From assembly GCA_964577955.1 (NCBI GenBank), contig CAZOAZ010000023.1, positions 8,005 to 72,004 of the forward strand: 64,000 bases of DNA, given 5' to 3'. This stretch comes from an uncultured Bifidobacterium sp. (GTDB lineage Bacteria > Acidobacteriota > Vicinamibacteria > Vicinamibacterales > CAVVIG01). Positions 29,487 to 51,158 of the stretch are shown piece by piece. Below the pieces are notes generated by a model. It was given only the letters and a program-made list of their open reading frames with translations, did no database searches and was not told the origin of the DNA. Position 1 is the first letter of the stretch. The number at the start of each line of letters is the position of its first letter. The position numbers and the translations under genes were made by a program.

Positions 29487-31363
29487 ACGAGCGGCTGCTC
29501 CGTCAGCCGGGCCGGACGGTCGAACTGCAGACGGCAGAATGTCTGATAGGTAGGGCTCTTTTCAAGCAGCAACTCGTGCGGGCCGATCGCCTCGATTCGG
29601 CCCTGGTCGAGCACCACAATCCGGTCCGCGTGCGTCACGGTCGAGAGGCGATGCGCGATGACGATGGCGGTGGTCCGCGCGACGACGGTGTTGATCGCGT
29701 CCTGGACGAGACGTTCGGACTGGCTGTCGAGCGCGCTCGTCGCTTCGTCCAGAATGAGAATCTGCGGGTTGTGGACCACCGCGCGGGCAATCGCGACGCG
29801 CTGGCGCTCGCCGCCCGAGAGGCGCATGCCGCGATCGCCGACGACCGTGTCGTACCCCTCTGGCAGAGCCATGATGAAGTCGTGGGCGTTGGCGATGCGC
29901 GCGGCCTGCTCGATGTCCTGGTCGCTCAGCTCGTCGCGGCCGTAGCGGATGTTGTTGCGGACGGTGTCGTGGAAGAGCAGGCTCTCCTGCGAGACGACGC
30001 CGAAGAGCCGCCGATAGTCGTGCTGCTTGAGCGTTTTCAGGTCGACGCCGTCGACGCTGATGGCGCCCGCCGAGGGATCGTGAAGGCGGAGCATCAGGTC
30101 GGCGAGCGTAGACTTCCCCGCTCCGCTCGGGCCGACCAGGGCGACGAACTCGCCCTTGGCGATGTCGAGCGAGAGATCCTGAATCGCCGGCCGGTCGCCG
30201 TACGCGAAGGTCACGTTCCGCAGCTGAATCCCGCGGTCGAACGTTCGCTTGCTGACCGGGCCGTCGACCACTTTCGGCTGCTCGGTCTCGAGCTCGGCGA
30301 TCCGCTCCGATGCCGCGCCGAGCGCTTCGATCCAGAGCGCGCTGGTCGCCAGGTGGTTCATCGGCGCGATCAGCGACCTGCCGACGTAGGTAAAGAGCAG
30401 CAGCCCCTGAAACGTCAGTTCGCCGCGCCGGACCTGCAGGATCGCGATGAGGAAGATGCCGAGAATCGCCAGCGAATCCAGAACGGAGCGCGCTGGAAGC
30501 TCCAGCTTTTCGATACGCCCCTTGCGCAACAGTGCCGCGGTCACGGTGTCGATCGTCGTGCGCAGTTTCTTCAATTCGAACGGCTCGGCGCTGAACGACT
30601 TCGCGACGCGGACGCTCGTGAACGCTTCCTGGAGCGCAGTGATCAGATCGGCCGACGTGTCGGTTTCCTCTCGGGTCAGGCGACGAATCGGACGGCGGAG
30701 CACCTGAGTGATCGCGAACTGCGCGGCCAGCAGTACGAGCGAACCGAACGTCAGCCAGATGCTCGTGCTGAAAAGATACGCTGAGTAGATGACGATCTGG
30801 ACACCGTGGTGCACGATGCTGCGCACCAGCGGGCCGAGGGCCTGCGCGGTGGCGATCGTGTCGACGGTCACGCGCGAAATCAGCTCGCCTGCACGCTGGC
30901 GGCCGAAGAACGCCATGTCCTGCTTGAGCAGGTGCTGGAGCAGATCGAGCTGCATCAGCCGCGCGAAGCGGGCGCGCAACCAGGAGGCGCCGTACTCGGC
31001 GAGGTAGTTCGCCACCGCGACCAGCACCGATTGGACGACGAACAGCAGGCCGAACAGGATCAGCGTGTCGTTGCCGCTGCCCATCCCGTAGCCCGCGAGC
31101 CAGAGCGTGATCCGGGCGCCGAGGTAATTCAGGTTCAGCCACGACGTGCCGGGAGGAATCGGCTGCGGCGCCGAGCCGCCGATGTTGGCGAGCAGGACCG
31201 CGAGAATCGCCGGCTGCAGCACGGCCAGCAGGTTCGCGACCAGCGTCACGAGGCCGACCAGCACGATGGCCCCGACATGCGGACCGCCGTAGCGGCGGAC
31301 CAGCACGCGCGCGGCCGCGAAGCTCGATCGCGGCGCCAATGAGTTAGCGGATGAGCCTGCCAA
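29483..31363 (-). CDS. ABC exporter, fused permease-ATPase (MsbA/PglK-like type I exporter)
   Basis: 626 aa. The N-terminal half carries 6 TM helices. Walker A GPSGAGKST, signature LSGGERQRVAIARA, Walker B ILILDEATSALD. The TTG start at 31363 is uncertain. Confidence 0.88.
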   Translation of the reverse strand: MAGSSANSLAPRSSFAAARVLVRRYGGPHVGAIVLVGLVTLVANLLAVLQPAILAVLLANIGGSAPQPIPPGTSWLNLNYLGARITLWLAGYGMGSGNDTLILFGLLFVVQSVLVAVANYLAEYGASWLRARFARLMQLDLLQHLLKQDMAFFGRQRAGELISRVTVDTIATAQALGPLVRSIVHHGVQIVIYSAYLFSTSIWLTFGSLVLLAAQFAITQVLRRPIRRLTREETDTSADLITALQEAFTSVRVAKSFSAEPFELKKLRTTIDTVTAALLRKGRIEKLELPARSVLDSLAILGIFLIAILQVRRGELTFQGLLLFTYVGRSLIAPMNHLATSALWIEALGAASERIAELETEQPKVVDGPVSKRTFDRGIQLRNVTFAYGDRPAIQDLSLDIAKGEFVALVGPSGAGKSTLADLMLRLHDPSAGAISVDGVDLKTLKQHDYRRLFGVVSQESLLFHDTVRNNIRYGRDELSDQDIEQAARIANAHDFIMALPEGYDTVVGDRGMRLSGGERQRVAIARAVVHNPQILILDEATSALDSQSERLVQDAINTVVARTTAIVIAHRLSTVTHADRIVVLDQGRIEAIGPHELLLEKSPTYQTFCRLQFDRPARLTEQPLV

Positions 31364-31967
31364 CGCGGTCGGTGAGCGACTTGCCGTGTTTCACGTAGTT
31401 GTAGAGCGGCACCGGGAGGTGAAAGATCTTGTCACGGTCGAGACGATCGAAGAGATCGTGATCCTCGAACACCTTCTTCTTCTTGTTGTACGACCCGACG
31501 CGCTCGAGATGCGAGGTCCTCAGCATCAGCCCGCACGCCAGGCCGTTGTTCTGGAACGACTCGACGGACATGATCTTCTCGTCGTTGTCGGTCAGAAAGT
31601 AGTCGCACGAGACGCCGATGTACTGCGGACAGAACCGCAGGAAGTTGAACAGCATCGGCAGGAACGGCGGCTGGACGTAGTCGTCGGCGTCGACGCGGAC
31701 GAAGAACTTGCCGCGCGAATGATCCACCCCGATGCGGGCGCTCGCCCCGACTCCGACATTCTTCCGGTTCACGACCAGCTTGATGTCACCAGCGGCATGA
31801 AACGTCTTCAGCGCCTCCACCGAGTCGTCGGTACTGTGGTCGTCGACGACGATGATTTCGTATTTGCTGCGTTCGATTTCCTGGCTGAGGAGCGAACGCA
31901 GGCAGCGGCGTACATAGCTCCCGTAGTTGTAGTTGGTGACGACGACGGAGATGTCCGGGCCCCTCAT
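31344..31967 (-). CDS. Glycosyltransferase family 2 (short, lower-GC gene)
   Basis: The start is taken at MRGPDISVVVTNYNYGSYV (ATG 31967, ATGA overlap). Motifs IIVVDDHSTDDS and RVDADDY. Confidence 0.8.
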   Translation of the reverse strand: MRGPDISVVVTNYNYGSYVRRCLRSLLSQEIERSKYEIIVVDDHSTDDSVEALKTFHAAGDIKLVVNRKNVGVGASARIGVDHSRGKFFVRVDADDYVQPPFLPMLFNFLRFCPQYIGVSCDYFLTDNDEKIMSVESFQNNGLACGLMLRTSHLERVGSYNKKKKVFEDHDLFDRLDRDKIFHLPVPLYNYVKHGKSLTDRVGRLIR

Positions 31968-32674
31968 CGGACGACCTTCTCCATCAGGCGGGCGAGGCGG
32001 CACAATTCGGCGAGCTCCGCCGGCGTCGCGCTGCACACGTGATCGGGCCCGGGCAGTCCTTTGTTGAGCGTGAAGTGCTTTTCGAGCACCGTCGCGCCGC
32101 GGCCGACCGCCACCAGCATCGCTTCGATGCCAATCGTGTGGTCGCTGAAACCGTCGTAGATCGATTCCGCGAACGACACCGGCAGCGAGATGTCGCTGTA
32201 CTCGCAGGGATACTTCGGCACGCAGTACAGGTAGTGGAGCTGCGGCAGGTCGTACGGCACGTCCTCACGATCCCAGAAGCCGAGCGAAATGAACGCGTCC
32301 TTCCCGGTGGCGAGGATCCGCTCGCACAGTTCCTCGTTCTGCAGCGCGCGGCTGGCGATCTTGTGGCGGCGGACGCCCAGCTCCTCCACCCACTCGAAGC
32401 GCTCGACGTCGAAGACCGAGGCCATGAACTCGATCCCCTCCTCATCACACCACCCCTTCAACCGCTCAGCATCGTCTCTCCCGAACTGCACGGTCAGCGC
32501 CTGGCGGAGCGCCTCGTCGTTGGGATGCGATCCGTTCGGACCGAAGATCTTGTAGGGGTCGTAGAACTGGAATTTCGCGATGTCGGCGCCGGCGATCTTC
32601 GCCTGCCGGATCATTTCGTGGGCGACGTCGATGCTGCCGTTGTGGTTGATGCCGATCTCAGCGATGACAATCAT
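31964..32674 (-). CDS. NeuB-family (sialic-acid-synthase-like) protein lacking the C-terminal SAF domain
   Basis: 236 aa. Motifs MIVIAEIGINHNGSIDVAHEMIRQAKIAGADIAKFQ and GFSDHTIGIEAMLVAVGRGATVLEKHFTL..GPDH. The protein ends about 100 aa short of PseI (348 aa) in the same locus. Confidence 0.75.
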   Translation of the reverse strand: MIVIAEIGINHNGSIDVAHEMIRQAKIAGADIAKFQFYDPYKIFGPNGSHPNDEALRQALTVQFGRDDAERLKGWCDEEGIEFMASVFDVERFEWVEELGVRRHKIASRALQNEELCERILATGKDAFISLGFWDREDVPYDLPQLHYLYCVPKYPCEYSDISLPVSFAESIYDGFSDHTIGIEAMLVAVGRGATVLEKHFTLNKGLPGPDHVCSATPAELAELCRLARLMEKVVR

Positions 32675-32679
32675 GCGCG

Positions 32680-33927
32680 TCAGAAGTAGATGGAGGGCAG
32701 TTCCGTTCGCAGGCGCTCGAGCCCTGGTCGCAGCGCCTTGACCTTCAGATAGTCGCCACGCCAGTCGACCGCGATAGTACCGGGATAGTAGCGGTTGATG
32801 TAGGTGGCCATTTCAGGAGCGGTGTCTTCGCGCAGGTAGTTGTAGAAATCCTTACGCACGCGGTGAAAGCCGTCGGTGAACCACTTCTCGAAGCCGAGCC
32901 ACTGCGGAACCAGTCCCCAGATCACCTCGAGCGGTGTGCCGGCAAAACGGATCTGCAGGACGTCCCAGATCGCGAACTCGTCGAGCTTCGCGTGGAACCG
33001 TTCCAGAAACGTGCGGCTCATGAGGTGATTCGTCGCACAGCCGAACCACTCGGGACCAGCCTCGCGATGAAACGCCACCCCGTTGACCCGTTCCGGCGAA
33101 ACGACGCGCTCGGCAGGTTGTGGCTGTCCGCCGACAAATACCGGCGCCGCTTCGCCGTCGGCGGCCGGCCCGTCGCTCATCCGCCGCCGGGCCGCTCTCG
33201 CCTCGACTCGCCACGGCAGTTCGCGGAGCAGTCCGCCTTCTGCTGGCGACCCGAACGTGCGGATCCAGCGTGAGCGGAGCGCTCGAAGACGCGACGACGG
33301 CGGACCACCAGCCGGCACGTGATTCTGCGTTTCGGCGGCAAAGTCCGAATGCCAGTCCTCGAGCACCCGGCGAAACGCCGGATCGCGCGAGAAGATTGCG
33401 AACGCTTCGGCAATCATCTGGTCTTCGAGGCGATCAATCGGCGTCGGTTGATCGTGACGCTCGCGGTAGCGCAGAAACTGATCCTTGGGTATCCGCCGCT
33501 TCTCGTGCCCGGACGCGATCACGTGCACGCCCTTTGCGGGCGCGAACGTCAGCATCGAGGACAGCAACTGCTCCCGCGCCAGCAGCGTGCCCTCGCCGAT
33601 GAACAGCACCCAGTCGTAGTCGCGCCAGCGTCCGTCCCGGATGAACTTGTACCAGGCGCCCGAGTCCAGGCTTTCGTCGTTCTGATACTCGATCGTATGG
33701 ACCCCAGGCCGCGACAGCGCGCAGACGCCGCGGACCCGCTCGTCGAACGGACTGAGCTGCTGATTCATGCCCGGCGCGTCGGCCCGGATCGCGCCGCCGC
33801 CGCCGACGTTGTAGAGCACGAAGACGTCGAACGCCTGCAGATCCTGCAGCAGCGTCGTCACCAGCGTCGACTGCATCAGCCACGGCTTGTGATGGACGCA
33901 GAAGACCAGCGCCAGACGGTTGGCCAT
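32680..33927 (-). CDS. Hypothetical protein (415 aa), no recognisable domain
   Basis: Long ORF in the operon frame with good third-position GC and an ATG start 3 nt below the upstream stop. N-terminus MANRLALVFCVHHKPWLMQSTL. A central Arg/Ala-rich low-complexity stretch is present. Confidence 0.6.
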   Translation of the reverse strand: MANRLALVFCVHHKPWLMQSTLVTTLLQDLQAFDVFVLYNVGGGGAIRADAPGMNQQLSPFDERVRGVCALSRPGVHTIEYQNDESLDSGAWYKFIRDGRWRDYDWVLFIGEGTLLAREQLLSSMLTFAPAKGVHVIASGHEKRRIPKDQFLRYRERHDQPTPIDRLEDQMIAEAFAIFSRDPAFRRVLEDWHSDFAAETQNHVPAGGPPSSRLRALRSRWIRTFGSPAEGGLLRELPWRVEARAARRRMSDGPAADGEAAPVFVGGQPQPAERVVSPERVNGVAFHREAGPEWFGCATNHLMSRTFLERFHAKLDEFAIWDVLQIRFAGTPLEVIWGLVPQWLGFEKWFTDGFHRVRKDFYNYLREDTAPEMATYINRYYPGTIAVDWRGDYLKVKALRPGLERLRTELPSIYF

Positions 33928-33930
33928 CGA

Positions 33931-34602
33931 CTAGACGCGGTGTTCCCGCGATCCGCGCCACAGCGCCTCCGCGAATGCAAAATCTTCTTCGGTGTCGATG
34001 TCGACGATCTCGAAGCGGTCACCCATCTCGACGAGCCTGACCTGTTGCCAGTCCCAGTAGCGGCCGTGCTCGAAGAAATAGCGCTTCTCGAAGAAATACA
34101 GCGCGTGCGCGAACTCGAGCACCGGCTGGACGGTCTTGCTGTTGATGGTCTTCATGTCGGCCGGAAAATTGAGCGGCCGGTGGTCGAGGCTGATGAAGTG
34201 ATTCTGCCGCCTGACGACACCAAAGGCGGGCGCCAGATTGCCGCGGACGCAGTCGCCCAGGAACCCCTGGATCGTTTCCGCGCGGAGAAACGGCAGGCAG
34301 GCGTTGACGATCAGGAGATGCGTAAACGGCACGTCGTGCAGGAACGACAGGATCTCGGTGATCGGCTCGTCGATCGTCGCGCTGCGCTCGCTGCGCCGGA
34401 CGAACGGGACCCCGTGGGCCACGCACTTGTCACGAAACGCGTTTTCGTGCCCGGCGAAGAAACCGCGCGTGCCAAACGTCGCGAGTTTCTCGAGCGCAAT
34501 GTCCACCAGCGTCGTGCCGGCGAACGGCCGCAGCATCTTGTTCGGGCAGCGCTGGCTTTGCGAACGGCCGAACGAAAACACGCCAATCGAAGGGGTCGTC
34601 AT
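33931..34602 (-). CDS. Cytidylyltransferase-family protein (CMP-NeuAc synthetase / SpsF-like)
   Basis: 223 aa. The N-terminal GVFSFGRSQSQRCPNKMLRPFAGTTL resembles the ..ARxxSxRxPxKxL..G.. opening of the acylneuraminate cytidylyltransferase family. It is the second such gene in the locus. Confidence 0.6.
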   Translation of the reverse strand: MTTPSIGVFSFGRSQSQRCPNKMLRPFAGTTLVDIALEKLATFGTRGFFAGHENAFRDKCVAHGVPFVRRSERSATIDEPITEILSFLHDVPFTHLLIVNACLPFLRAETIQGFLGDCVRGNLAPAFGVVRRQNHFISLDHRPLNFPADMKTINSKTVQPVLEFAHALYFFEKRYFFEHGRYWDWQQVRLVEMGDRFEIVDIDTEEDFAFAEALWRGSREHRV

Positions 34603-35861
34603 ACGCGTGCCACCGAAGCCACCTCAGCGATGGCCGCGAAACTTCTCGCCGCCGCCCCGTCGACCGAACCGAGATACTTGCGGAGATACGCCTCACGCGC
34701 CTCGGGATCGACCCTGAAGCTGTCCAGCGTCAGCGATGGCAACCGGTCGAGCGCTTCACCAATCCCGATGGTCGTCGACACCCCGGCAAAAGCGAAGGGA
34801 CCGCCTTCCTCCGTGATGAAGAATCGATCGTGCGACTTGTGCATGTCGGCTTCGTCGCCGAGGTAGTCGTGCGCGTCGAACGTGATGCACAGGTTGGGAA
34901 CGCCCATCGACACGGCCTCGAGCACGCTCAGACTGAAGTAGTTCACGCAGACGTCGGCAATGGCCATGGCCTCGAGGATCGTCGGCGGGTAGTAGCCTTC
35001 GTCGTAGAGCGCCTTGTCGGCGGCCGCATGGAGGTACGGCGGAATCGGCGTCTTCTCCCGCGACTTCACCAGCAGGAACGCACCGTTGCGATTGCAGAAC
35101 GCCCGCAGGGCGCCGACGACCGCCGCATCCGACCAGCCGCGGCGGACGTGTTCGATGTATTCGAAGCGCCTTCTGCGGACGATGTTGAAGAGTTGACGGA
35201 GCCGGCTCGGTTCGCCAAACACCGACTTGGGCCAGAACGTCTGCTTGCCGACGCCCTGCGGAAACGGCAGCAGCAGAACCACCGGCTGCTCTTTCGGAAT
35301 GCCCCAGCGCGCCCGGACCGCCGCGGCATCGATGACGCCCGCAACATCAGCTTCGGCAAAACCGGTCCATACGGCACGCGACGCCAGCAGCGTGGGCAGC
35401 GGGTCGCTCGCCGCTTTGCTCGTCGCCCTATAGAAGTCCTCCGCCCACTCGAGCCACCAGGGCGACTGCAGCAGCAGGCGATCGCACGACAGCAGCCCGG
35501 ACGGCGGATGCGTCAGGAATGTATCGAGCCCGGATTGCACGAGACACCACGGTACGTTCGCGCCGAGGGCACGGTCGCCGATATCGCTCTGACGAGTCCC
35601 AATCGAGAGCACGGCGTCGTAGCCGCCCGCGGCAAGACCAGCCGCGAGCTCATCGGCACCGCGAAACGTCTTCACGTTGACGGATCCTTTGAACGTCGGC
35701 GTGCGTGCCACGGCGGGAAAGAGATAGCTCTTGGCGCCTTCAGACGGATGGCTGTAGTCGTGCCAGCAGTCCACCATGGCGCCGTTCGTCAGCGCCGCAT
35801 CGATGATCGGCCCCACCAGCTTGTAGGTCGAAATGCGGCTGATGACGGCAGCGATCTTCAT
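34599..35861 (-). CDS. Hypothetical protein (420 aa), possible GT-B-like transferase
   Basis: ATGA-coupled to pseG upstream and to the cytidylyltransferase-like gene downstream. No motif recognised. The two-lobed alpha/beta-looking sequence only suggests a GT-B or TagF-like fold. Confidence 0.55.
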   Translation of the reverse strand: MKIAAVISRISTYKLVGPIIDAALTNGAMVDCWHDYSHPSEGAKSYLFPAVARTPTFKGSVNVKTFRGADELAAGLAAGGYDAVLSIGTRQSDIGDRALGANVPWCLVQSGLDTFLTHPPSGLLSCDRLLLQSPWWLEWAEDFYRATSKAASDPLPTLLASRAVWTGFAEADVAGVIDAAAVRARWGIPKEQPVVLLLPFPQGVGKQTFWPKSVFGEPSRLRQLFNIVRRRRFEYIEHVRRGWSDAAVVGALRAFCNRNGAFLLVKSREKTPIPPYLHAAADKALYDEGYYPPTILEAMAIADVCVNYFSLSVLEAVSMGVPNLCITFDAHDYLGDEADMHKSHDRFFITEEGGPFAFAGVSTTIGIGEALDRLPSLTLDSFRVDPEAREAYLRKYLGSVDGAAARSFAAIAEVASVARV

Positions 35862-36889
35862 GACGCCCGCACGACCTCTCGCGCCACCCGCGCCGCACCG
35901 TGACCGTCGACGAGCGTCCGGCCAGCCAGACTCTGCTTACGCCGCAGCCCTGAATCGGCCAGCAGCGCCGACACTGCGTTCTGTAACCGCTGGGCAAGGC
36001 CGGAGTCGTCAATCGATCCGGCGGATAGCGCCGTGCCGGCGCTGACGAAGCCGTGCAGCGTCGGCCGCTGGTTGTCGAACAGTTCCATCGCCACGGCGGG
36101 CGTGCCGGTCGCGGCCGCCTCGTACAACGTCTGCCCCGCGGCGCAGACGACGAGTTCGGCGTCGACCAGCAGCGGATGGAGCGATGGAGGACCGTCGACG
36201 ATCCGCACGACATGTCGAGATTCGAGTGGGACGGACCAGCCATCCGAAAACGGGCCGACGACGACGGTCATCGTGAAGGCGGCGGGCAGGGCGTCGAGCC
36301 ACTCGACGATTCTCGGCAGCAGACGATGCGGATCGCTGCCGCCGACGGCGACGAGAACCTGTGGCGACGCGGCCGCGGCCTGCCGTTCAGGCGGTTCGAC
36401 TTCGTACTCGGGCTGCAGCACCGCATACGCGGGTCCCAGGAGAAACTGTGTGGCCTCCGTCGTCGAACGGTACGGCACACGGTCGGCGCCGATCGCCCCG
36501 TTGATCAGCACGTCGGCCGGTGTCGGCGACGACGCCTGATCGTCGAACACGGTCAGCCTGCCCGCAGCATCCCGAACCGTCGCCAGGTCCGCAGCGCTCA
36601 GGCGATACGAATCGACGACAGCCATCCGAGCGCGTTCGTGGCGGATCACATTCACGGTCTGATCGACATCCTCGTGAGCGCCGAGCCGATCGAGTCCGGC
36701 CTCGAGCGCCACGAACCGGCAGCCGGCCGCGGCGGTGCGCTGACGCACGGTCTCGAAATCCGGAGCAAGGACCACGCTATCCATGTCACATCTGCCAAGG
36801 GCGCGCGCCAGCGCCAGCGAACGCTGCAGATGTCCCAGTCCAATACCCGGACCGGCGTCCACCCGCAGTACCGCCGTGAATCGTGTCAC
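35858..36889 (-). CDS. pseG: UDP-2,4-diacetamido-2,4,6-trideoxy-beta-L-altropyranose hydrolase (PseG)
   Basis: 343 aa. The N-terminal LRVDAGPGIGLGHLQRSLALARAL is the typical PseG opening (RADAS..IGxGHxMRCL). GT-B-like C-terminal half. Lies in pse gene context. Confidence 0.8.
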   Translation of the reverse strand: MTRFTAVLRVDAGPGIGLGHLQRSLALARALGRCDMDSVVLAPDFETVRQRTAAAGCRFVALEAGLDRLGAHEDVDQTVNVIRHERARMAVVDSYRLSAADLATVRDAAGRLTVFDDQASSPTPADVLINGAIGADRVPYRSTTEATQFLLGPAYAVLQPEYEVEPPERQAAAASPQVLVAVGGSDPHRLLPRIVEWLDALPAAFTMTVVVGPFSDGWSVPLESRHVVRIVDGPPSLHPLLVDAELVVCAAGQTLYEAAATGTPAVAMELFDNQRPTLHGFVSAGTALSAGSIDDSGLAQRLQNAVSALLADSGLRRKQSLAGRTLVDGHGAARVAREVVRAS

Positions 36890-37560
36890 CGCAGCGAGCG
36901 CACCAGTTCAAAGGCTTCGGCATACTGCACGCCCGCCGCCGCACCACGAGAACGAGCCAGCGCCCGCAGCGACTCCGGCGAACGCGGATGCGGTGCCGGC
37001 CGAGACTCGGAGCGGTAACGTTGCATCGCCTCGACTTTTTGCTCGATCGTCGCCGTGACGTCGACGAACACCGACGGCCGGAACACCGGGTCGACCCGCT
37101 GGAACGCCCACTCGGTCGACGAGGGCACTTCGAAGAGGTAAAGGTCCTTGACGCGGTGTGCGGCCGCACCAGGGCGCGTGGCCGTCAGCACCGCGCGAAA
37201 CGTCAGGCCGTGATCGATGTTCAGGTCGCCCGGATGGTGGGTATAGATGGCGTCCGGCCGGTACTCCTCGACCCATCCTTCGACGCGCTTCACGATGTCG
37301 AGGAGCGAGACCTCGTCGAAGCGATTGTCGGGTAGACCGCCGAAGGCGACCCCGCGGGCGCCGAGCACGGCCGCCGCGGCCCTGGCATCGGCGCGGAGTT
37401 CGTCGAGCGCGCTCTCGGCAACGCCGCTGCGTTCGGCGTGCCTCGAGCTCAACCCCTCGCCGAGGATCGCGATCTGGACCGAATGGTGCCCCGACTCGCG
37501 CGCCACCAACCCGCCGCAGCCAAGCACTTCGTCGTCTGGATGCGCCGCCACGATGAGCAT
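36886..37560 (-). CDS. PIG-L / LmbE-family N-deacetylase
   Basis: MLIVAAHPDDEVLGCGG (AHPDDE motif) and HHPGDLNIDH (zinc-ligand His cluster). The ATG at 37560 lies 2 nt below the upstream stop. Confidence 0.85.
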   Translation of the reverse strand: MLIVAAHPDDEVLGCGGLVARESGHHSVQIAILGEGLSSRHAERSGVAESALDELRADARAAAAVLGARGVAFGGLPDNRFDEVSLLDIVKRVEGWVEEYRPDAIYTHHPGDLNIDHGLTFRAVLTATRPGAAAHRVKDLYLFEVPSSTEWAFQRVDPVFRPSVFVDVTATIEQKVEAMQRYRSESRPAPHPRSPESLRALARSRGAAAGVQYAEAFELVRSLR

Positions 37561-37562
37561 GT

Positions 37563-38753
37563 TCACGATGGTGACCCGTCCTTCGCGGGCGTGAGGCGCA
37601 CCTGTGCACGCAGGACACCGCCGTCCAGCGATGCGCCGGTGAACTCGCAACGTGCGCCGCCGATGTCGGTATAGGCGTGCGGATAGCCCTCGGCATCGAG
37701 CATCCGGATGAAGTCGTAGAGTTCGTCGATGCTCGCGCTGTCCGGTAGCCGGCTCTCAGCCGGGGTGCGGCGGCGGAATTCCACAACGTCGCCGGACTGC
37801 GGCTCCGGCACTGGCTGTTCGTCGAGAATGCGGCCGACCATCCTCGCCGCCAGTTCGGACGCACGAACGTAGATGTCTTGCGCGCTGCCGTCGAGCGCGA
37901 GCGGCGCCTTGAGATAGATCGGCCCGGCGTCCAGCTCCTCGCTCAAGCGGAACGCGCTCAGCACGGTCGTCCGGTGGCCGCGCAGGATCAGGTTCTGCAG
38001 CGGCGATCCGCCGCGGCCGTACGGCAGATCGGTCATGTGGAAGCCGACGCATTCGAAGCCGTTGACGATCTCGGCCGGCACCTTCCACGACCAGTGGACG
38101 AAGAAGATGTAGCGCGGTCCATGCGATCGGACGAGCGTCGCGAGGCTGTCGGGATTGTCGACAAGGATCCAGCGTCCCGGACGGTCGGCGAGGCATCGAT
38201 CGAAGACCTCGCGATTCCACGCCCCGCGAGCGGCGACCAGATAGCACTCACTCACATCCGGCCTCAGCCTGGTGCCGCTGCCGCTCTGGCGTTCGCGGCG
38301 TTCGAGACGGATCGCGGGATGGCCGGCAACCGTTTCCTCCCCCGTCGCGACGAATCCCGCCTGCTCGAACGTCCGCAGCGAAGCGCGATTCTCCGGCTTC
38401 ACGCGGGCGACGATGGCGACACGGGGATGGCGGCGCTGTAGCTGCACGCTGGCTTCGCGCAGCATCGTAACGCCGAGTCCGCGCTGCCGGCACGCCGGCG
38501 CCACGCTGATATCGACTTCTGCCTCACCGCCGCTTCGATCGAAGCGGATCTGGCCGACCGCGACGCCGTTCTCTTCAGCGACAAACATCTCGCAGTCGCT
38601 CGCCTGAAGTCGGCCGGCAAACCACCGTTGATGATCGGCCCAGGTGATTGGCTCGGACTGGAACGCCGAGGCGCGAGTCACCGAATCGTTAACCCACTCC
38701 CAGAGCAGCCGCGCATCGGCCGCGGTCGCGCGCCGCAGCGTGAGTGCGCTCAC
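37563..38753 (-). CDS. pseH: Fusion: PseH-like GNAT N-acetyltransferase + formyltransferase-like domain
   Basis: The N-terminal ~150 aa are GNAT (LRRATAADARLLWEWVNDSVTR..VGQIRFD..RQRGLGVTML). The C-terminal ~230 aa are Formyl_trans_N-like (FVHWSWKVPAEIV..GFHMTDLPYGRGGSPLQNLI..EELDAGPIY). GTG start with GTGA overlap with pseI. Confidence 0.7.
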   Translation of the reverse strand: MSALTLRRATAADARLLWEWVNDSVTRASAFQSEPITWADHQRWFAGRLQASDCEMFVAEENGVAVGQIRFDRSGGEAEVDISVAPACRQRGLGVTMLREASVQLQRRHPRVAIVARVKPENRASLRTFEQAGFVATGEETVAGHPAIRLERRERQSGSGTRLRPDVSECYLVAARGAWNREVFDRCLADRPGRWILVDNPDSLATLVRSHGPRYIFFVHWSWKVPAEIVNGFECVGFHMTDLPYGRGGSPLQNLILRGHRTTVLSAFRLSEELDAGPIYLKAPLALDGSAQDIYVRASELAARMVGRILDEQPVPEPQSGDVVEFRRRTPAESRLPDSASIDELYDFIRMLDAEGYPHAYTDIGGARCEFTGASLDGGVLRAQVRLTPAKDGSPS

Positions 38754-39796
38754 GAAATGTCGTCCTGCTGGACCGGCGCGTCGCTCGCAATCGCGCGTTT
38801 CGCGTAGCGGCCGAGCACGCCGGGGAAAGCGGACGGCGGCAGCCCCGGATGGTTCTTGCCCTGGCGGAGAACCGCGATGTTATCGCGGCTGAATACTTCC
38901 CCGGCGGCGATCGCCCGGGTGGCGAAGACGCTGCGGCGGGCGAAGGCACGGAGCTCGTCCTCCACCGGATCGACGACCTTCTCGCCGCTGCCGCGCACCA
39001 GTTCGGCCTGGCGGATTCGCGTCACCATCTCGCGCAATTCATGCGGTTCGAGCGCAAAGCGATGGTCGGGGCCGGCGAGCGCGTTGCTCAGCGTGAAGTG
39101 TTTCTCGATGATCGACGCGCCGCACGCGACTGCGGCCACCGGCGCGACGATCGGATCGCGGGAGTGATCGGAGAGCCCGACCGGCACCTGGAATCGATCC
39201 GCCAGCGTCACCAGGGCGCGCACGTTGATCGACGCGATCGGCGCCGGATAGGCCGCTGTGCACTGCAGCAGCGCCAGTTCGCGGTTGCCCGCCTCGCGGC
39301 AGGTGGCGACCGCTTCTTCCACTTCGGCGAGGTTCGAGGTGCCCGTCGACAGAATCATCGACGTGCCCTTCGCCGCGACATGGCGCAGCAACGGTGCATG
39401 GGTCATCTCGTAGGAGGCAATCTTGAAGGTCTCGACGTACGGATCCAGCCGATCGGCCGACTCCTCATCGAATGGCGTCGCGAGAAAGTGAACCGACCGC
39501 GCGCGGCAGTGGTCGGAAAGGACCGGCAGCCACTCGTACGGCATCTCCATCGCGGCGATGATGTCGACGATTGGCGTCGGTACCTTGAGGTAGTCGCTGA
39601 CGCCGGCACTCCTCGGATACATCCGCGCCGCCCGGAAGACCTGGAATTTCACGGCATCGGCGCCGGCGTCAGCCGCGACATCGATGAGCTGCCGGGCCAT
39701 CTGCAGATCGCGATTGTGGTTGCTGCCGGCTTCGGCGATGACATACACCGGATGCGCCGGGCCGACGTGGCGGTCGCCGATCCGGATCCCTGGCAT
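38750..39796 (-). CDS. pseI: Pseudaminic acid synthase (NeuB family with SAF domain)
   Basis: The start is taken at MPGIRIGDRHVGPAHPVYVIAEAGSNHN (ATG 39796, TGATG overlap with pseF). Motifs GLSDHS and EKHFTL..GPDH, plus a C-terminal SAF-like RSVFATRAIAAGEVF. Confidence 0.85.
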   Translation of the reverse strand: MPGIRIGDRHVGPAHPVYVIAEAGSNHNRDLQMARQLIDVAADAGADAVKFQVFRAARMYPRSAGVSDYLKVPTPIVDIIAAMEMPYEWLPVLSDHCRARSVHFLATPFDEESADRLDPYVETFKIASYEMTHAPLLRHVAAKGTSMILSTGTSNLAEVEEAVATCREAGNRELALLQCTAAYPAPIASINVRALVTLADRFQVPVGLSDHSRDPIVAPVAAVACGASIIEKHFTLSNALAGPDHRFALEPHELREMVTRIRQAELVRGSGEKVVDPVEDELRAFARRSVFATRAIAAGEVFSRDNIAVLRQGKNHPGLPPSAFPGVLGRYAKRAIASDAPVQQDDIS

Positions 39797-40524
39797 CACG
39801 CTTCGGCCGCCTGCATCGCGCGCAAGTAGTGCTCGGCCTGGCGGGCCTGGTCCGGGTAGTCGACCTCCAGCGAATACTTGTCGTCGTCCTGAACGAGGAG
39901 ATGCAGCCGCTCGCCGAACCACGCGTGCAGGGCGCGGTTGCCATCGGTGGCTTCGAGTGTCGACACGCGGACGCCGTAGACCGCGCCGTCCATCGCGAAG
40001 ATCTTCGGGTAGTCCTGAGTCCTGAAACCACGATCCGAGTTCATGAACGGCTCACAGGCGCCGGTCGCAGGATCGGTGATGACCTTCGCCCACTCGGGCC
40101 GGAAGCGCAGTTGCTGCGCCGTGCACACCGCGGTCGCCTCCGGAGTCCGTTCGAGTCGCGCGATGACTTCGTCGATCTGGCCGGTTTTCCGGATCGGAAC
40201 GTTGCCTTGCATCGTGATGGCGAGATCGGCGTGAAAACCGTCTCGGCTGGCAAGCAACCGCACGACCTGACGGATCGCATCGTCGAGCGCCGCGGTATCG
40301 GACGCGAGTTCGGCGGGACGCGGCACGAACTCGACGCCATACGCGCGGGCCAGTTCCTCGAGCGCGGGATCGTCCGACGACACCACCAGCCGATCGAGGC
40401 GCTTCGCGTCGAGCGCGGCTTCGAGCGTATACGCAAACATCGGCTTGCCGCAGAGCCGCGCGAGATGTTTGTCCGGAAACCTCAGGCTGCCTTTACGCCC
40501 GGGAATGATGCCGACGGTTTTCAT
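39796..40524 (-). CDS. pseF: Pseudaminic acid cytidylyltransferase (CMP-sugar synthetase family)
   Basis: 242 aa. The opening MKTVGIIPGRKGSLRFPDKHLARLCGKPM is typical of CTP_transf_3 family enzymes. Adjacent to pseI. Confidence 0.8.
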   Translation of the reverse strand: MKTVGIIPGRKGSLRFPDKHLARLCGKPMFAYTLEAALDAKRLDRLVVSSDDPALEELARAYGVEFVPRPAELASDTAALDDAIRQVVRLLASRDGFHADLAITMQGNVPIRKTGQIDEVIARLERTPEATAVCTAQQLRFRPEWAKVITDPATGACEPFMNSDRGFRTQDYPKIFAMDGAVYGVRVSTLEATDGNRALHAWFGERLHLLVQDDDKYSLEVDYPDQARQAEHYLRAMQAAEA

Positions 40525-40554: not shown

Positions 40555-42306
40555 CTAGACGTCCGCACGCGTGGCGCCGCGCACCCGCTCCGGGCGTTCC
40601 TGGACCTCGCCGGTGTGAGGATGGCGAACGGTGTTCTGCGCCCCGAGTGAATTGATGGCCTGCCAGGACAGTTCAACGACCTCCTCGTCAGGCAAGTCGC
40701 TGAAATTGGTGCGAACGTTTTCGCCCTGTTCGCCCAGTTTCAAGAAGTACTGTTCGATGATGTCTTCGTCCGCCGGCCCCTTCACCCCGGTCACCGCCTT
40801 GGCGATCAGACCGCGATCGAGTGCGAGCTGCCAGAATGCCGTGGCCGGATACGCCGTCGTGAAGAAGAAGACCTCCGGCTTGAGGTTGACGCGGTTGCAG
40901 AACTCCACCGTTTCACGAACGGTGTCGGCGGTTTCGCCCGGAGAACCAATCATGAACGAGCAGTCGGCGTAGCCCAGGACGCGCTGCGTCTCGCTGATCG
41001 CCAGCTCCATCTTTTCGATGGTCTGGCCGCTCTTGTCGATCTCCTTGAGCACGGTCGGACTGCCCGACTCAATCCCGTAGCCGGCTTGTCGCATGCCGAC
41101 GTCGTACGCCTGTTCGAGCATGTGCGGCCGGCCTTCCTTCCGCGCTCTGATCACATCGTCGGCAATGATGTTGGTGCGGCAGGTGCCGCCCCAGAGCACT
41201 TCGAAGCCACTCCGCGCCCGCCGCTCGCGAAGTTCAGCACAAAGCTGCAGCGCCCACCGGTAGTCGGTCATCAACAGATCGTCGAGGAAGTGCACGTAGG
41301 CCGCGCCGTAGTGCTCGACCAGAAACTGCATCTCGTCGACCACTTCCTTCGGACTGCGGAGCCGGTACTGCGCGCCGAGATACGCGGCGTAGCAGTAGTC
41401 GCACGCCTTGCCGGCATAGGGGCACCCGCGTGACGCGATCATCGACATACTGAACTGGCCGGGCTCGGTCGACGCACCGTCCTTCCACTTGCTCTTCCAA
41501 TTGAGATGCCCGACCGGATTTCGCTTGTAGACCTCTTCCTCCGGCCAGCGGCCGCGCAGCGGCCAGGGCAGGTGATCGAGGCCGCGCCGTTGCGCCTGCA
41601 CCGACGGCCGGTGGCCGTTGTCGCGGATATCGAAATCGCCGGGCCGAAGTTCGTGCCGATAGGCGATTCCCTTGACCGACGCCAGCGACCCGCGTTCCTC
41701 CAGACAGTGAAGCACTTCGGAGAACGTGACCTCGCCCTCCTCCTGCACGGCAATGTCGATCGGCAGGCGCCGAAGCATGAATTCGGGGGCGGATGACGCG
41801 ATGCCACCGCCGAGAATGATCGGCACATCGGGACAGAGCTTTCGGCAGAGTTCCGTGATGGCGCGGATGCGGCCATACTGCGTGATGATCCCGCCGATAC
41901 CGATCACATCGGGTTTTTGCTCGGAGAGTTTTTCGGTGATGCGCCGCTCGATCCAGGCGTTGAAGTCCGACGCCGGCTGCTTCACCGGGCCGCCGCGTTC
42001 GGCATTCAGATCGAGCACGTCGACCTGGTGTCCGTCCATGGCCGCTACGGCGCCGACGTAGCCCTGACCGATCGGCATGATGTTCGGAAAGGACCACTCG
42101 CGAATCGGCGCATTGATGAACAGCACACGCAGGCCGCGCGCCCTCGGCGTGAAGGCCCGCACGGATTCCTCAGTCGTAATGCGCGGCCACGAGTCGCTCA
42201 GCACCGAGCCGCCTGTATCGAAGCGCTGATGAAAGCGCGCCGGCGGCGGGCCGGAAACCGGCTGGCCGGCTCCGGCGAGAGGAAGAATCGTCTTGCCGCC
42301 ACTCAT
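40555..42306 (-). CDS. B12-binding domain radical SAM enzyme, copy 3, with non-canonical Cys spacing
   Basis: 583 aa. The B12-like region is RVLFINAPIREWSFPNIMPIGQGYV..PDVIGIGGI..PIILGGGIA. The cluster region RGCPYAGKACDYC (codons at 41424-41392) has CX6CX2C spacing instead of CX3CX2C. Confidence 0.8.
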   Translation of the reverse strand: MSGGKTILPLAGAGQPVSGPPPARFHQRFDTGGSVLSDSWPRITTEESVRAFTPRARGLRVLFINAPIREWSFPNIMPIGQGYVGAVAAMDGHQVDVLDLNAERGGPVKQPASDFNAWIERRITEKLSEQKPDVIGIGGIITQYGRIRAITELCRKLCPDVPIILGGGIASSAPEFMLRRLPIDIAVQEEGEVTFSEVLHCLEERGSLASVKGIAYRHELRPGDFDIRDNGHRPSVQAQRRGLDHLPWPLRGRWPEEEVYKRNPVGHLNWKSKWKDGASTEPGQFSMSMIASRGCPYAGKACDYCYAAYLGAQYRLRSPKEVVDEMQFLVEHYGAAYVHFLDDLLMTDYRWALQLCAELRERRARSGFEVLWGGTCRTNIIADDVIRARKEGRPHMLEQAYDVGMRQAGYGIESGSPTVLKEIDKSGQTIEKMELAISETQRVLGYADCSFMIGSPGETADTVRETVEFCNRVNLKPEVFFFTTAYPATAFWQLALDRGLIAKAVTGVKGPADEDIIEQYFLKLGEQGENVRTNFSDLPDEEVVELSWQAINSLGAQNTVRHPHTGEVQERPERVRGATRADV

Positions 42307-42313
42307 AGATGAC

Positions 42314-43510
42314 TCACTCGGAAAGTTGACTCACGACTTTGGTGACGGCGGCCACGACGTCGGCGACATCGTGATCGGTCATCCCATGAAACATCGGCAG
42401 GCTGACGAGCCGGCGAAAGGCGTCCTCGGCGATCGGAAAGTCGCCATCGCCCGTGCCCAGCGTCTGCCGGTAGTACGGATGCAGATGCACGGGAATGTAG
42501 TGAACGTTCGCACCGATACCCTCGGCCCGCAGCGCGCGAAAGAGCTGGGCGCGGTCGAACGCGGCGCGCGAGCGGACGCGAATTGGAAAGAGATGCCACG
42601 ATGGCTCGACGCCGTCACGAATCACCGGCAATTCGAGGTCGGACAGTCCGGCGAAGGACGCCACGTAGGTCCGCGCGATGCTGCGGCGCCGCTCGACATT
42701 CGCCGCCAGACGATCGAGCTGCGACAGGCCCAGCGCGCAGGCGATGTCGGAGATACGGTAGTTGAAGCCGAGCGCCGTCATTTCGTAGTGCCACTGGCCG
42801 CGCGCCTGGCGTTCGCGCGCGTCCGACTCGATGCCGTGGTTGCGGAAGAGACGCAGCCGCCGGGCCAGCCCGGCATCGTTGGTCGTGACCATTCCGCCTT
42901 CGCCGGTCGTCAGATGCTTGACCGGATGAAAGCTGAAGACGGTCATCTGGCTGATTGAACCGACTCGCCGCCCGTGATACTGCGCGCCGAGCGCGTGCGC
43001 CGCATCTTCAATCAACGTCAGCCGGTGATCGCGCGCGAGCGCCAGCAGTTGATCCAGATCGGCGGGATGCCCGGCGTAGTCGACCGCCAGGATCGCCTTC
43101 GTCCGGCGAGTGATCCGTTGGGCCGCCGCCGACGGATCAAGATTGAGCGTGTCGGCCTGCACGTCGGCAAAGACCGGCGTGGCGCCCTGGTACAACACGG
43201 CGTTCGAGGTCGCGCAGAACGTCATCGGCGTCGTGACCGCTTCGTCGCCGGGGCCGAGCCCCGCGGCGAAGGCCGCCGCATGCAGCGCCGCCGTCCCCGA
43301 ACTGAACGCCACCGCATCCGCCGCTCCAGTGGCCGACGCAATCCCGCGTTCGAACTCGGCGACCTTCGGCCCGGTCGTGATCCAATCCGAGCGCAGCACC
43401 GCCACAACCGCGGCGATGTCGGCTTCGGTGATCGTCTGGTGGCCGTACGGCAGCAACTCGCGCCGGACCGGCGTACCGCCGTCGACGGCGAGCCGGGCGT
43501 TGGTCGTCAT
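42314..43510 (-). CDS. pseC: UDP-4-amino-4,6-dideoxy-N-acetyl-beta-L-altrosamine transaminase (DegT/DnrJ/EryC1 family)
   Basis: The start is taken at MTTNARLAVDGGTPVRR (ATG 43510, ATGA overlap with pseB). The PLP-lysine region is SFHPVKHLTTGEGGMV. Motif LPYGHQTITEADI. Confidence 0.82.
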   Translation of the reverse strand: MTTNARLAVDGGTPVRRELLPYGHQTITEADIAAVVAVLRSDWITTGPKVAEFERGIASATGAADAVAFSSGTAALHAAAFAAGLGPGDEAVTTPMTFCATSNAVLYQGATPVFADVQADTLNLDPSAAAQRITRRTKAILAVDYAGHPADLDQLLALARDHRLTLIEDAAHALGAQYHGRRVGSISQMTVFSFHPVKHLTTGEGGMVTTNDAGLARRLRLFRNHGIESDARERQARGQWHYEMTALGFNYRISDIACALGLSQLDRLAANVERRRSIARTYVASFAGLSDLELPVIRDGVEPSWHLFPIRVRSRAAFDRAQLFRALRAEGIGANVHYIPVHLHPYYRQTLGTGDGDFPIAEDAFRRLVSLPMFHGMTDHDVADVVAAVTKVVSQLSE

Positions 43511-44511
43511 TCCTGAATCAGCCGTCGAAGTTCGTCGACACTCAGCCAGCGCTCGTTGGTATCGCTGCTGAAGCGGAAGCCATCGGGCACGGGCCGTCCC
43601 TCGTGCCAGTTGTCGGCCCGCCACCACGGATGGAGCGGTTTGATCAGATAGAGGTCGTCGAGCTCCAGCGCATGACGCGACTCATCCTCGGACACCAGCA
43701 CTTCATGCACCTTCTCGCCCGGCCGGATGCCGGTCAGCTTCACCTGGCAGCCCGGCGCGACCGCCGAGACGAGATCCATGATCCGCATGCTCGGAATCTT
43801 CGGCACGAACACTTCCCCGCCCTGCATCACGTCCAGGCAGCGAAGCACGAAGTCGACGCCCTGCTGCAGCGTGATCCAGAAGCGCGTCATGCGATCGTCG
43901 GTCACCGTCACCGTACCGGTCGCGCGCTGCTCGACGAACAGCGGAATCACGCTGCCGCGGCTGCCGACGACGTTGCCGTAGCGGGCGCAGCTGAATTTCG
44001 TGCCGGCTTCCCCCGAGTAGGCATTGCCCTGCACGAACAGCTTCTCGGCGCACAGCTTCGTCGCGCCGTACAGGTTCACCGGGTTGACGGCCTTGTCGGT
44101 GCTGAGCGCGAGCACGTGGCCGACGCCGGCGTCGATCGCCGCGTCGATCACGTTCGAGCCGCCGACGATATTGGTCTTCACCGCCTCGAACGGGTTGTAC
44201 TCGCAGGCCGGCACCTGCTTCAGCGCGGCGGCGTGGATGACGACGTCCACGCCGCTCATCGCCCGGCGCAGCCGATCCAGATCGCGGACGTCGCCGATGA
44301 AGTAGCGGACCTTCTTGCCGCCGAACTCGCGGAACATTTCCGACTGTTTGAGTTCATCGCGGCTGAAGACGATCACCTTGCGCGGTTCGTAGCGCTTCAG
44401 CACGGTGTCGACGAAACGGCGCCCGAATGACCCGGTGCCGCCGGTCACGAGGACGACCTTGTTGGTGAGCGTCATGGCTGTGGATGTCACGGAATCCTTT
44501 TCTCGGCGCAC
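43507..44511 (-). CDS. pseB: UDP-N-acetylglucosamine 4,6-dehydratase (inverting), PseB/FlaA1 type
   Basis: Motifs VVLVTGGTGSFG and STDKAVNPVNLYGATK. The maximal ORF uses the GTG at 44511. Alternative starts are the GTG at 44490 (AAGGA 4 nt upstream) and the ATG at 44475. Confidence 0.88.
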   Translation of the reverse strand: MRREKDSVTSTAMTLTNKVVLVTGGTGSFGRRFVDTVLKRYEPRKVIVFSRDELKQSEMFREFGGKKVRYFIGDVRDLDRLRRAMSGVDVVIHAAALKQVPACEYNPFEAVKTNIVGGSNVIDAAIDAGVGHVLALSTDKAVNPVNLYGATKLCAEKLFVQGNAYSGEAGTKFSCARYGNVVGSRGSVIPLFVEQRATGTVTVTDDRMTRFWITLQQGVDFVLRCLDVMQGGEVFVPKIPSMRIMDLVSAVAPGCQVKLTGIRPGEKVHEVLVSEDESRHALELDDLYLIKPLHPWWRADNWHEGRPVPDGFRFSSDTNERWLSVDELRRLIQE

Positions 44512-51146: not shown

Positions 51147-51158
51147 CGATACAGACTC

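Follow-up and report, generated by a model that had tools for sequence, protein, structure and literature searches.

A GNAT-formyltransferase-like fusion and a PIG-L deacetylase as a putative N-acyl tailoring module in a pseudaminic acid gene cluster

The window analysed here is a 64,000-nucleotide (nt) stretch of contig CAZOAZ010000023.1 (assembly GCA_964577955.1), and we studied two neighbouring genes in it that lie within a gene cluster for pseudaminic acid (Pse). Pse is a bacterial sialic-acid-like sugar found on flagella, pili, capsules and O-antigens, and its N-acyl groups determine the charge, the antigenic properties and the recognition by phages or antibodies. The interval 36886-38753 was found to consist of two open reading frames (ORFs) on the minus strand. 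The first, at 37563..38753, encodes a 396-amino-acid fusion of a GNAT domain with a formyltransferase-like (FTL) domain of the 1ZGH type, as identified from the ORF and from Pfam and Protein Data Bank (PDB) matches. The second, at 36886..37560, encodes a PIG-L/LmbE-family de-N-acetylase of 224 amino acids. An earlier note on this DNA had described both ORFs, the fusion and its motifs, and all of them were present. We describe the pair as a putative module for N-acyl tailoring of Pse, made up of a transformylase family that is uncharacterised but structurally solved and of a dedicated PIG-L subfamily.

The GNAT domain occupied fusion residues 1-152 (38298..38753, minus strand) and is presumed to be a PseH-like acetyltransferase for N4, the future N7 of Pse. 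Pfam placed PF13302 (E 5e-15) and PF00583 (E 2e-10) on residues 4-135. The FTL domain was located at residues 172-388 (37590..38240, minus strand), and the same residues were matched to the 1ZGH structure in a PDB sequence search (E 2e-52). In addition, PF21553 (Formyl_trans_C_2) was found on residues 331-387 (E 2e-18, 66 bits, cut-off 27). The domain carried His239, Asp275, Gly237, an HWSW motif at 220-223 and the folate-loop-like TDLPYGRGGSPLQN, and the protein sequence includes ECVGFHMTDLPYGRGGSPLQ and ELDAGPIYLK. An AlphaFold (AF2) model built from 27 homologues reached a predicted local distance difference test (pLDDT) value of 91.2, with two confident domains and a disordered linker at 155-167. 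In Foldseek searches, the C-terminal half matched 1zgh with a template-modelling (TM) score of 0.90, followed by Fmt, ArnA, HypX, the FDH hydrolase domain, WbkC and VioF at E values of 1e-13 to 1e-11. The N-terminal half matched AAC(6')-Ib-type GNATs. In the model, the C-terminal domain has the fold of a folate-dependent transformylase, and the worry that a folate-binding fold might be lacking fell away with its placement on 1ZGH, Fmt and ArnA.

The identical sequence of the fusion was found once among 5.8 billion proteins. In the same set, the GNAT+FTL architecture was present in at least 25 other proteins of 375-425 amino acids at 37-53% identity; counted as 90%-identity clusters over all searches, at least 26 others shared it, at 36-53% identity. 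Besides a triple fusion of PseG, GNAT and FTL, the search returned FTL as a separate protein of about 230 amino acids, in thousands of cases. Three fusion-bearing contigs read either NeuB - GNAT::FTL - PIG-L (with a 4-nt overlap) - PseG-sized gene, or PseG-sized gene - GNAT::FTL - PIG-L - NeuB. An assembly or frameshift artefact, which the earlier note had considered, was ruled out by the recurrent homologues of the same architecture, the clean two-domain model and the shared neighbourhoods.

The GNAT domain was compared with known PseH enzymes. Against the PseH model TIGR03585 it scored 31.9 bits, under the cut-off of 93.1. Its profile matched Campylobacter jejuni PseH (4XPK) over the full length with E 5e-11, but this was not the top match, and phosphinothricin- and spermidine-type GNATs matched as well as or better than 4XPK.

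The deacetylase was identified by PF02585 (E 5e-22, 79.3 bits, cut-off 28.2), and the protein contains AAHPDDE and HHPGDLNIDH. Its metal ligands and base, H7, D9, D10, D116 and H117, were at least 95% conserved among 75 orthologues, and the subfamily comprised 744 representatives (50% identity) at E<=1e-30. As had been noted before, the gene begins 2 nt after the fusion; its ATG at 37560 follows the TGA of the fusion (TGA-ac-ATG), a spacing peculiar to the window. In-frame alternative starts were present at GTG 37575 and TTG 37650. The ATG at 37560 was favoured because the homologues begin with M-x-[IV]-L-V-x-A-H-x-D-D-E.

The two genes belong to a translationally coupled operon that is transcribed from high to low coordinates. 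The fusion begins with a GTG that shares bases with the stop codon of the NeuB/PseI-like gene upstream of it (GTGA), and the stop of the PIG-L gene overlaps the GTG start of the PseG-like gene (GTGA). All the genes named here are on the minus strand. The inverting UDP-GlcNAc 4,6-dehydratase PseB (43507..44511) scored 498 bits against TIGR03589 (cut-off 407.75), and the aminotransferase PseC (42314..43627) scored 470.8 bits against TIGR03588 (cut-off 423.5). The "Pse scaffold" of the earlier note was justified, since PseB and PseC, the first two committed steps, are canonical. The PseF-like CMP-nonulosonate cytidylyltransferase (39796..40524) was matched by PF02348 (E 7.5e-22) and by TIGR03584 (E 1.6e-25, 90.1 bits against a cut-off of 205.7). 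The NeuB-family nonulosonate synthase (PseI-like, 38750..39922) carried PF03102 (E 2e-81) and a SAF domain; it scored 283.8 bits against the PseI model TIGR03586 (cut-off 340.25) and 338.9 bits against that of NeuB (cut-off 399.65). The PseG-like UDP-sugar hydrolase (35858..36889) gave E 1e-42 and 146.5 bits against TIGR03590, with a cut-off of 153.55.

Conservation of the module was examined by scanning an FTL profile against one genome per species. A relative was present in at least 552 species, and the best 80 loci were examined. The arrangement, of which the earlier note knew no characterised case, is therefore not unusual, as the FTL family is widespread and the fusion recurs. The best 80 loci came from Acidobacteriota, Cyanobacteria, Chloroflexota, Verrucomicrobiota, Planctomycetota, Nitrospirota, Alpha- and Gammaproteobacteria, Peribacteria and one Methanoregula. 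Among them, the closest FTL relatives were in metagenome-assembled genomes (MAGs) of Acidobacteriaceae and Terriglobales, and the closest overall gene order was in a Pseudomonadales MAG (L010). Carriers that are in culture included Stutzerimonas stutzeri 28a22, Azospirillum soli, Shewanella sp. NIFS-20-20, Brevifollis gellanilyticus, Thalassospira aquimaris and Herbaspirillum seropedicae. A PIG-L orthologue was located one or two genes downstream of FTL in 79 of the 80 loci, and the exception ends at a contig edge. Homologues of the window proteins PseI, PseG, PseC and PseB were present in 75, 72, 63 and 60 loci, respectively. The usual order was PseB-PseC-...-PseF-PseG(::GNAT)-FTL-PIG-L-PseI, and PseI stood between FTL and PIG-L in 19 loci. 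The FTL stop and the PIG-L start overlapped by 4 nt (ATGA/GTGA) in 46 of 60 adjacent pairs.

In a reciprocal scan, a PIG-L profile was run against metagenome contigs and gave 80 further loci, nearly all of them Pse-type clusters. In 57 of these there was enough upstream sequence to judge; FTL was present in 19, a paralogous formyltransferase-like family only in 5, and neither in 33. In ten loci lacking FTL, the gene just upstream of PIG-L was WbqC-like (twice), a PylC-like ATP-grasp, KAS III, LarA-like, HMGL-like, an amidohydrolase, a methyltransferase, a HAD protein or an inositol-monophosphatase-family protein. The dependence was one-sided. FTL essentially never occurred without the deacetylase, and the deacetylase served several partners, some of them amide-forming. 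This is expected if PIG-L frees an amine and its partner determines which group is added in place of the acetyl.

Individual partners were also seen across both sets of loci. PIG-L was beside a WbqC-like gene (PF08889) in L096, L107 and L012, beside an ATP-grasp gene in L142 and L008, and beside a KAS III (FabH-like) gene in L131. These genes replace FTL in L096, L107, L131 and L142, and L008 and L012 have FTL too. The occurrence of WbqC-like, ATP-grasp and FabH-like partners suggests that the unmasked amine can also be given other acyl groups or aminoacyl groups.

Gene fusions in these loci joined neighbouring steps, as PseG::GNAT, GNAT::FTL, PseG::GNAT::FTL and PIG-L with GNAT in both orders. 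Within the PIG-L subfamily, GNAT::PIG-L and PIG-L::GNAT fusions were found in eight representatives, and one fusion was PIG-L::FolD (P0301; L081 1069-2598 and L082 1068-2597), on contigs reading NeuB - FTL - PIG-L::FolD. FolD is the methylene-tetrahydrofolate dehydrogenase/cyclohydrolase that produces 10-formyl-tetrahydrofolate (10-formyl-THF). The PIG-L::FolD protein is a Rosetta-stone link of the Pse deacetylase to 10-formyl-THF supply. It was the sole direct pointer to the formyl donor, agrees with a folate-dependent FTL and supports formyl-THF-dependent transfer indirectly. The earlier note had suggested that an acetamido group is removed and replaced. The pairing of FTL with PIG-L, the other amide-forming partners and the FolD fusion all spoke for this; the exchange itself we infer.

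We then considered which nitrogen is concerned. The slot directly upstream of FTL was occupied by a GNAT in 49 of the 80 loci, usually fused to PseG and otherwise adjacent. A paralogous formyltransferase-like protein of about 210 amino acids filled it in 13 loci and a canonical sugar N-formyltransferase in 12, with single cases of WbqC-like, ATP-grasp and hexapeptide acyltransferases. The canonical enzyme carried PF00551 and PF18216 with the motif I-N-L-H-P...I-D-T-G-D, in which the Asn is present, and its best solved relative was "formyltransferase PseJ" (6CI2/6CI4) with E 4e-30. PseG consumes the PseH product. Because PseH- and PseJ-type enzymes alternate in the slot while FTL and PIG-L are constant, FTL is unlikely to be the enzyme for N4/N7. 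This leaves the acetyl-bearing N2 of the hexose, inherited from UDP-GlcNAc, which becomes N5 of Pse. The proposal that GNAT and FTL are alternative N-acylating domains was thus probably not correct for a single nitrogen. Most likely, the GNAT domain does the ordinary PseH step and only FTL uses the unmasked amine.

The paralogous formyltransferase-like family was observed in L003, L026, L039, L041, L045, L047, L049-L051, L058, L068, L077 and L080. The family, of which L045 9310-9978 is an example, carries H-N-L-V-V-H-E-S-x-L-P-x-G-R-G...D-A-G-D and a C-terminal R-V-x-D-N-E-R-Y-P, and it is apparently uncharacterised. Like FTL, it is without the Asn at position -2, and it fills the PseH slot. 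It was fused to PseG in L026 and to FTL in L077, and in L039 it followed PIG-L in one ORF (10000-12105).

The active site was examined in an alignment of 22 FTL members, whose mean column identity was 63%. The invariant blocks were HWS(W), C-V-x-F-H-M-T-D-x-P-Y-G-R-G-G-S-P-L-Q-N, D-A-G-P and R-M-L-D-x-x-G-Y-P. His239 and Asp275 were invariant in the alignments of 22 and 27 homologues and paired with the His and Asp of Fmt. In the profile comparison with Bacillus anthracis Fmt, c-v-G-f-H lay over c-i-N-v-H and l-D-a-G over l-D-a-G, and the SLLP-x-x-RG-like folate loop was kept. This agreed with the earlier observation that the His and Asp are retained and that the Asn two residues before the His is absent. 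The absence held family-wide; judged from the alignments, the missing Asn is a property of the whole FTL family and not of this gene. The invariance of the His, the Asp and the folate loop across phyla argues for retained catalysis.

The FTL family profile matched 1ZGH with E 1e-79, and in a literature search no publication dealing with what 1ZGH does was found. Proteins of the family are mostly labelled "methionyl-tRNA formyltransferase" by NCBI and JGI. Since the FTL genes sit in Pse clusters, this label is in all likelihood a misannotation. For Campylobacter coli clade 2, "distinct protein synthesis initiation" was deduced from such a gene found with pseH (PMC12102941).

Two possible relationships of FTL to known formyl derivatives were checked. 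The window FTL gave no match to PseJ at E<=1 in the protein comparison or at 0.01 in the profile comparison. An orthologous relationship to PseJ was ruled out, given this result, the absence of the Asn and the co-occurrence of real PseJ-like genes. The other was the Pse5(3RHb)7Fo sugar of Pseudomonas aeruginosa O7. A cluster look-up and a homologue search from a Pseudomonas MAG FTL led to Herbaspirillum- and Halomonas-type relatives and to no P. aeruginosa entry, and a literature search on this sugar found no gene-level description.

The following pathway is proposed from gene content and conserved residues. PseB and PseC would produce UDP-4-amino-4,6-dideoxy-beta-L-AltNAc. The GNAT domain would act as PseH and acetylate N4, the N7 of Pse. 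PIG-L, as a zinc amidase, would strip the acetyl group inherited from UDP-GlcNAc at N2 of the hexose, the N5 of Pse. The His/Asp dyad of FTL would then transfer a formyl group from N10-formyl-tetrahydrofolate to the freed amine. PseG, the NeuB-like synthase and the PseF-like enzyme would complete the pathway to CMP-Pse5Fo7Ac. The swap may take place on the UDP-sugar, the free sugar, Pse or CMP-Pse. To this assignment, in which the fusion and PIG-L form an N-acyl tailoring module that yields Pse5Fo7Ac, we give an about even chance. What was observed are the identities of the genes, the folds of the domains, the conservation of the catalytic residues and that of the genomic coupling. We infer that FTL is active despite its missing Asn and takes the formyl group from formyl-THF, and that its target is the amine which PIG-L sets free, at N5 rather than N7. 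More tentatively, and at a little short of even, we suggest that the 1ZGH-type domain founds a family of Asn-less, PIG-L-dependent and folate-dependent N-formyltransferases, and that the pair turns the 5-N-acetyl group of Pse into 5-N-formyl. N5-formyl nonulosonic acids do exist in nature, as Leg5Fo7Ac was described in Halorubrum, with a predicted formyltransferase in its cluster (PMC6137143). The cluster of Candidatus Kuenenia, discussed below, in which deacetylase and formyltransferase genes occur together, is a precedent for the idea.

Several points weigh against this proposal. PF00551 (Formyl_trans_N) matched fusion residues 203-285 only weakly, at 21.8 bits and below the cut-off of 26.1. 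Gly237 stands at the position of the catalytic Asn of Fmt, where Gly, Cys or Ala was present in 22 of the 22 aligned FTL members and Val in 1ZGH. To our knowledge, this Asn is a feature of every characterised transformylase, and its absence could mean altered or lost FTL chemistry. In L039 and L080, a GNAT, the FTL paralogue and FTL were present together, and L083 combined FTL with two GNATs and an additional fragment of Formyl_trans_N. These three loci hold more acylating enzymes than two nitrogens need. In the window, the synthase, PseG and PseF homologues fall under their equivalog cut-offs, which means that the end product may differ from plain Pse. Literature searches found no paper characterising the FTL family or the PIG-L subfamily and no report of Pse5Fo7Ac, and the known formyl derivative of Pse has its formyl group on N7 (PMC11040635).

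A different possibility, unlikely in our view, is that the two enzymes act on different nitrogens. FTL would then formylate the PseC-derived N4, in the manner of PseJ, and PIG-L would free N2/N5, which is left free or is acylated by GNAT with a non-acetyl acyl-CoA to give Pse5(acyl or NH2)7Fo, comparable to the known Pse5(3RHb)7Fo. Candidatus Kuenenia stuttgartiensis makes nonulosonic acids in CMP-activated form (CMP-NulOs) with a formyl group and a free amine, and its legionaminic-type (Leg-type) cluster has deacetylase and formyltransferase genes (bioRxiv 10.64898/2026.04.20.719630). One free amine plus one N-formyl group speaks for this alternative, but the mass data suit 5-formyl/7-amino equally. 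The Kuenenia precedent is equally compatible with it, and we kept it as the main rival. Pse7Fo5(3RHb) and Pse5Ac7Fo are established natural sugars, PIG-L and GNAT are fused in both orders, and the GNAT domain is far under the PseH cut-off (31.9 against 93.1 bits), all of which is in its favour. However, the GNAT is usually fused to PseG, the taker of the PseH product. An N4 formyltransferase needs no deacetylase, yet PIG-L accompanied FTL in all but one of the 80 loci, and FTL would be redundant in the twelve loci that also hold a canonical PseJ-like N-formyltransferase.

A late swap at N7 is less likely still. Here, PIG-L would strip the PseH-installed 7-N-acetyl group of Pse5Ac7Ac or of its CMP ester, and FTL would formylate N7 to give Pse5Ac7Fo. 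This product is a well-documented natural derivative, PseF tolerates N-substituted Pse, tailoring at the level of the CMP-sugar is detectable in Kuenenia, and the 19 loci with PseI between FTL and PIG-L fit a late step. However, it would be wasteful to acetylate N4 and then remove the group, as PseJ-type enzymes formylate N4 directly. The loci with a PseJ-like gene already have an N7 formyl group, yet they retain FTL and PIG-L. In addition, the characterised PIG-L enzymes (MshB, BshB, PIG-L and chitobiose deacetylase) act on the 2-acetamido group of pyranosides.

It is also improbable that FTL is not a formyltransferase at all. It could serve as a non-catalytic partner or scaffold of PIG-L, hydrolyse formyl-THF or use a non-amine acceptor, and PIG-L would then yield a free-amine Pse. 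The family-wide loss of the Asn, the PF00551 score under threshold and the new invariant residues (HWSW) near the folate-site region could be read in this way, and free-amine NulOs exist. This is opposed by the invariance of the His, the Asp and the folate loop across phyla at 63% mean column identity, and by the FolD fusion, which points to consumption of 10-formyl-THF. Finally, a housekeeping GlcNAc-conjugate deacetylase of the bacillithiol/mycothiol type that is here by chance is effectively refuted by context and has almost no probability left: although the best NCBIfam matches of PIG-L were BshB1 (61.5 bits), BshB2 (39.9) and MshB (17.8), these are far below the cut-offs of 182.5, 195 and 224, the gene is translationally coupled to its neighbours, and almost every one of 160 loci has its orthologue within a Pse-type cluster. 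An identity as BshB or MshB was ruled out on the same scores and context. The deacetylase was thereby tied to Pse clusters and not to GlcNAc-thiol pathways, in the loci found with FTL as in those found with PIG-L.

Other features of the operon were recorded. The listed PseC ORF (437 amino acids) begins at a GTG and shares about 120 nt with the end of PseB. The TIGR03588 match starts only at residue 59, so that translation probably begins downstream of this GTG, at an internal ATG (MTTNARL...). Between PseC and the PseF-like gene lies a B12-binding radical SAM protein of 583 amino acids (40555..42306, minus strand). Relatives of it were present in the Pse-type loci L005, L010, L088, L102 and L108, and it might C-methylate or otherwise modify the nonulosonate. 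Downstream of PseG, the minus-strand region 31964-35861 encodes proteins of 420 and 415 amino acids that have no Pfam or NCBIfam match, a 223-amino-acid cytidylyltransferase-like protein, and a 236-amino-acid NeuB-like protein with the TIM barrel only and no SAF domain. Parts of this set recur beside FTL/PIG-L in L010 (9542-12205) and L088 (4479-8475). This set may encode a second branch of the ulosonic-acid type, or else a pathway for modification.

The wider window is a large surface-glycan locus with a GT-C/PMT_2-like protein, GT2s, an MBOAT and AlgX-like pair, methyltransferases and an ABC exporter. The 554-amino-acid GT-C/PMT_2-like membrane protein (44520-46184, minus strand) is directly upstream of PseB and is a candidate glycan transferase. 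At 49989-52574 (minus strand), an MBOAT protein (471 amino acids) and an AlgX-like SGNH protein (385 amino acids) form a pair of the kind usual in the O-acetylation of polysaccharides. A second B12-radical-SAM enzyme of 700 amino acids (27384-29486, minus strand) adjoins the MsbA-like ABC exporter (29483-31363). Its best match was the KedN5 family of methylcobalamin-dependent C-methyltransferases, at 182 bits and below the cut-off.

The enzymes known to vary the N-acyl groups of Pse are PseH and PseJ for N7 and PseA for amidine formation. For exchange of the UDP-GlcNAc-derived N5 acetyl group, we know of no established route. The N-modification enzymes have been called "largely unknown" (PMC11040635). 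The window locus and about 160 related loci point to a dedicated PIG-L with interchangeable re-acylating partners, of which an atypical formyltransferase is the commonest. If the pair does turn the 5-N-acetyl group into 5-N-formyl, then in some archaea and at least hundreds of bacterial species from the environment a major form of Pse would have gone unreported, namely Pse5Fo7Ac or, in the presence of a PseJ-like gene, Pse5Fo7Fo. PIG-L would then be a general gateway to N5 diversification, with formyl groups introduced by FTL and other acyl or aminoacyl groups by ATP-grasp, KAS III and WbqC-like enzymes. Thousands of database entries named "methionyl-tRNA formyltransferase" are likely misannotated. 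The FTL/PIG-L pair also provides candidate enzymes for the chemoenzymatic synthesis of N5-modified Pse. No new principle is involved, as the N-formylation of sugars is familiar and so is tailoring by deacetylation followed by reacylation. Uncharacterised deacetylases within pse clusters had already been noted in Aeromonas flagellin islands.

The module was compared with known systems. The closest solved relative of FTL is 1ZGH of Clostridium thermocellum, a structural-genomics entry named "methionyl-tRNA formyltransferase". It belongs to the same family, with 39% identity and a TM score of 0.90 over the whole domain, and both proteins carry the FHMTDLP-GRGGSPLQN, DxG and RMLDxEGYP motifs. It differs in that the window FTL is fused to a GNAT. 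In 2018, Reimer et al. reportedly found that the PseC product is formylated by PseJ, which stands in for PseH. PseJ (Anoxybacillus kamchatkensis, 6CI2/6CI4) resembles FTL in being a folate-type formyltransferase of a Pse cluster that diversifies the N-acyl groups of Pse; unlike FTL, it has the canonical Asn-His-Asp, takes the place of PseH at the N4 amine and does without a deacetylase. In PMC11040635, PseJ is credited with the Pse5Ac7Fo pathway, as the N7 formyltransferase of Pse. PseH (C. jejuni Cj1313, 4XPK) is, like the window domain, a GNAT of about 150 amino acids in a Pse cluster, and GNAT orthologues are fused to or adjoin PseG; the window domain differs by its score below the TIGR03585 cut-off and by its fusion to FTL. 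MshB, BshB1/2, PIG-L, diacetylchitobiose deacetylase and TT1542 are in the same Pfam family as the window PIG-L, which keeps the AHPDDE and xDH motifs. However, the window enzyme forms a distinct subfamily, at about 1e-9 to the solved members, below every equivalog cut-off and specific to Pse-type clusters. The Kuenenia and Halorubrum clusters, compared by description only, share with the window the idea of a nonulosonic acid cluster with a formyltransferase, in Kuenenia also with a deacetylase, but they are legionaminic-type.

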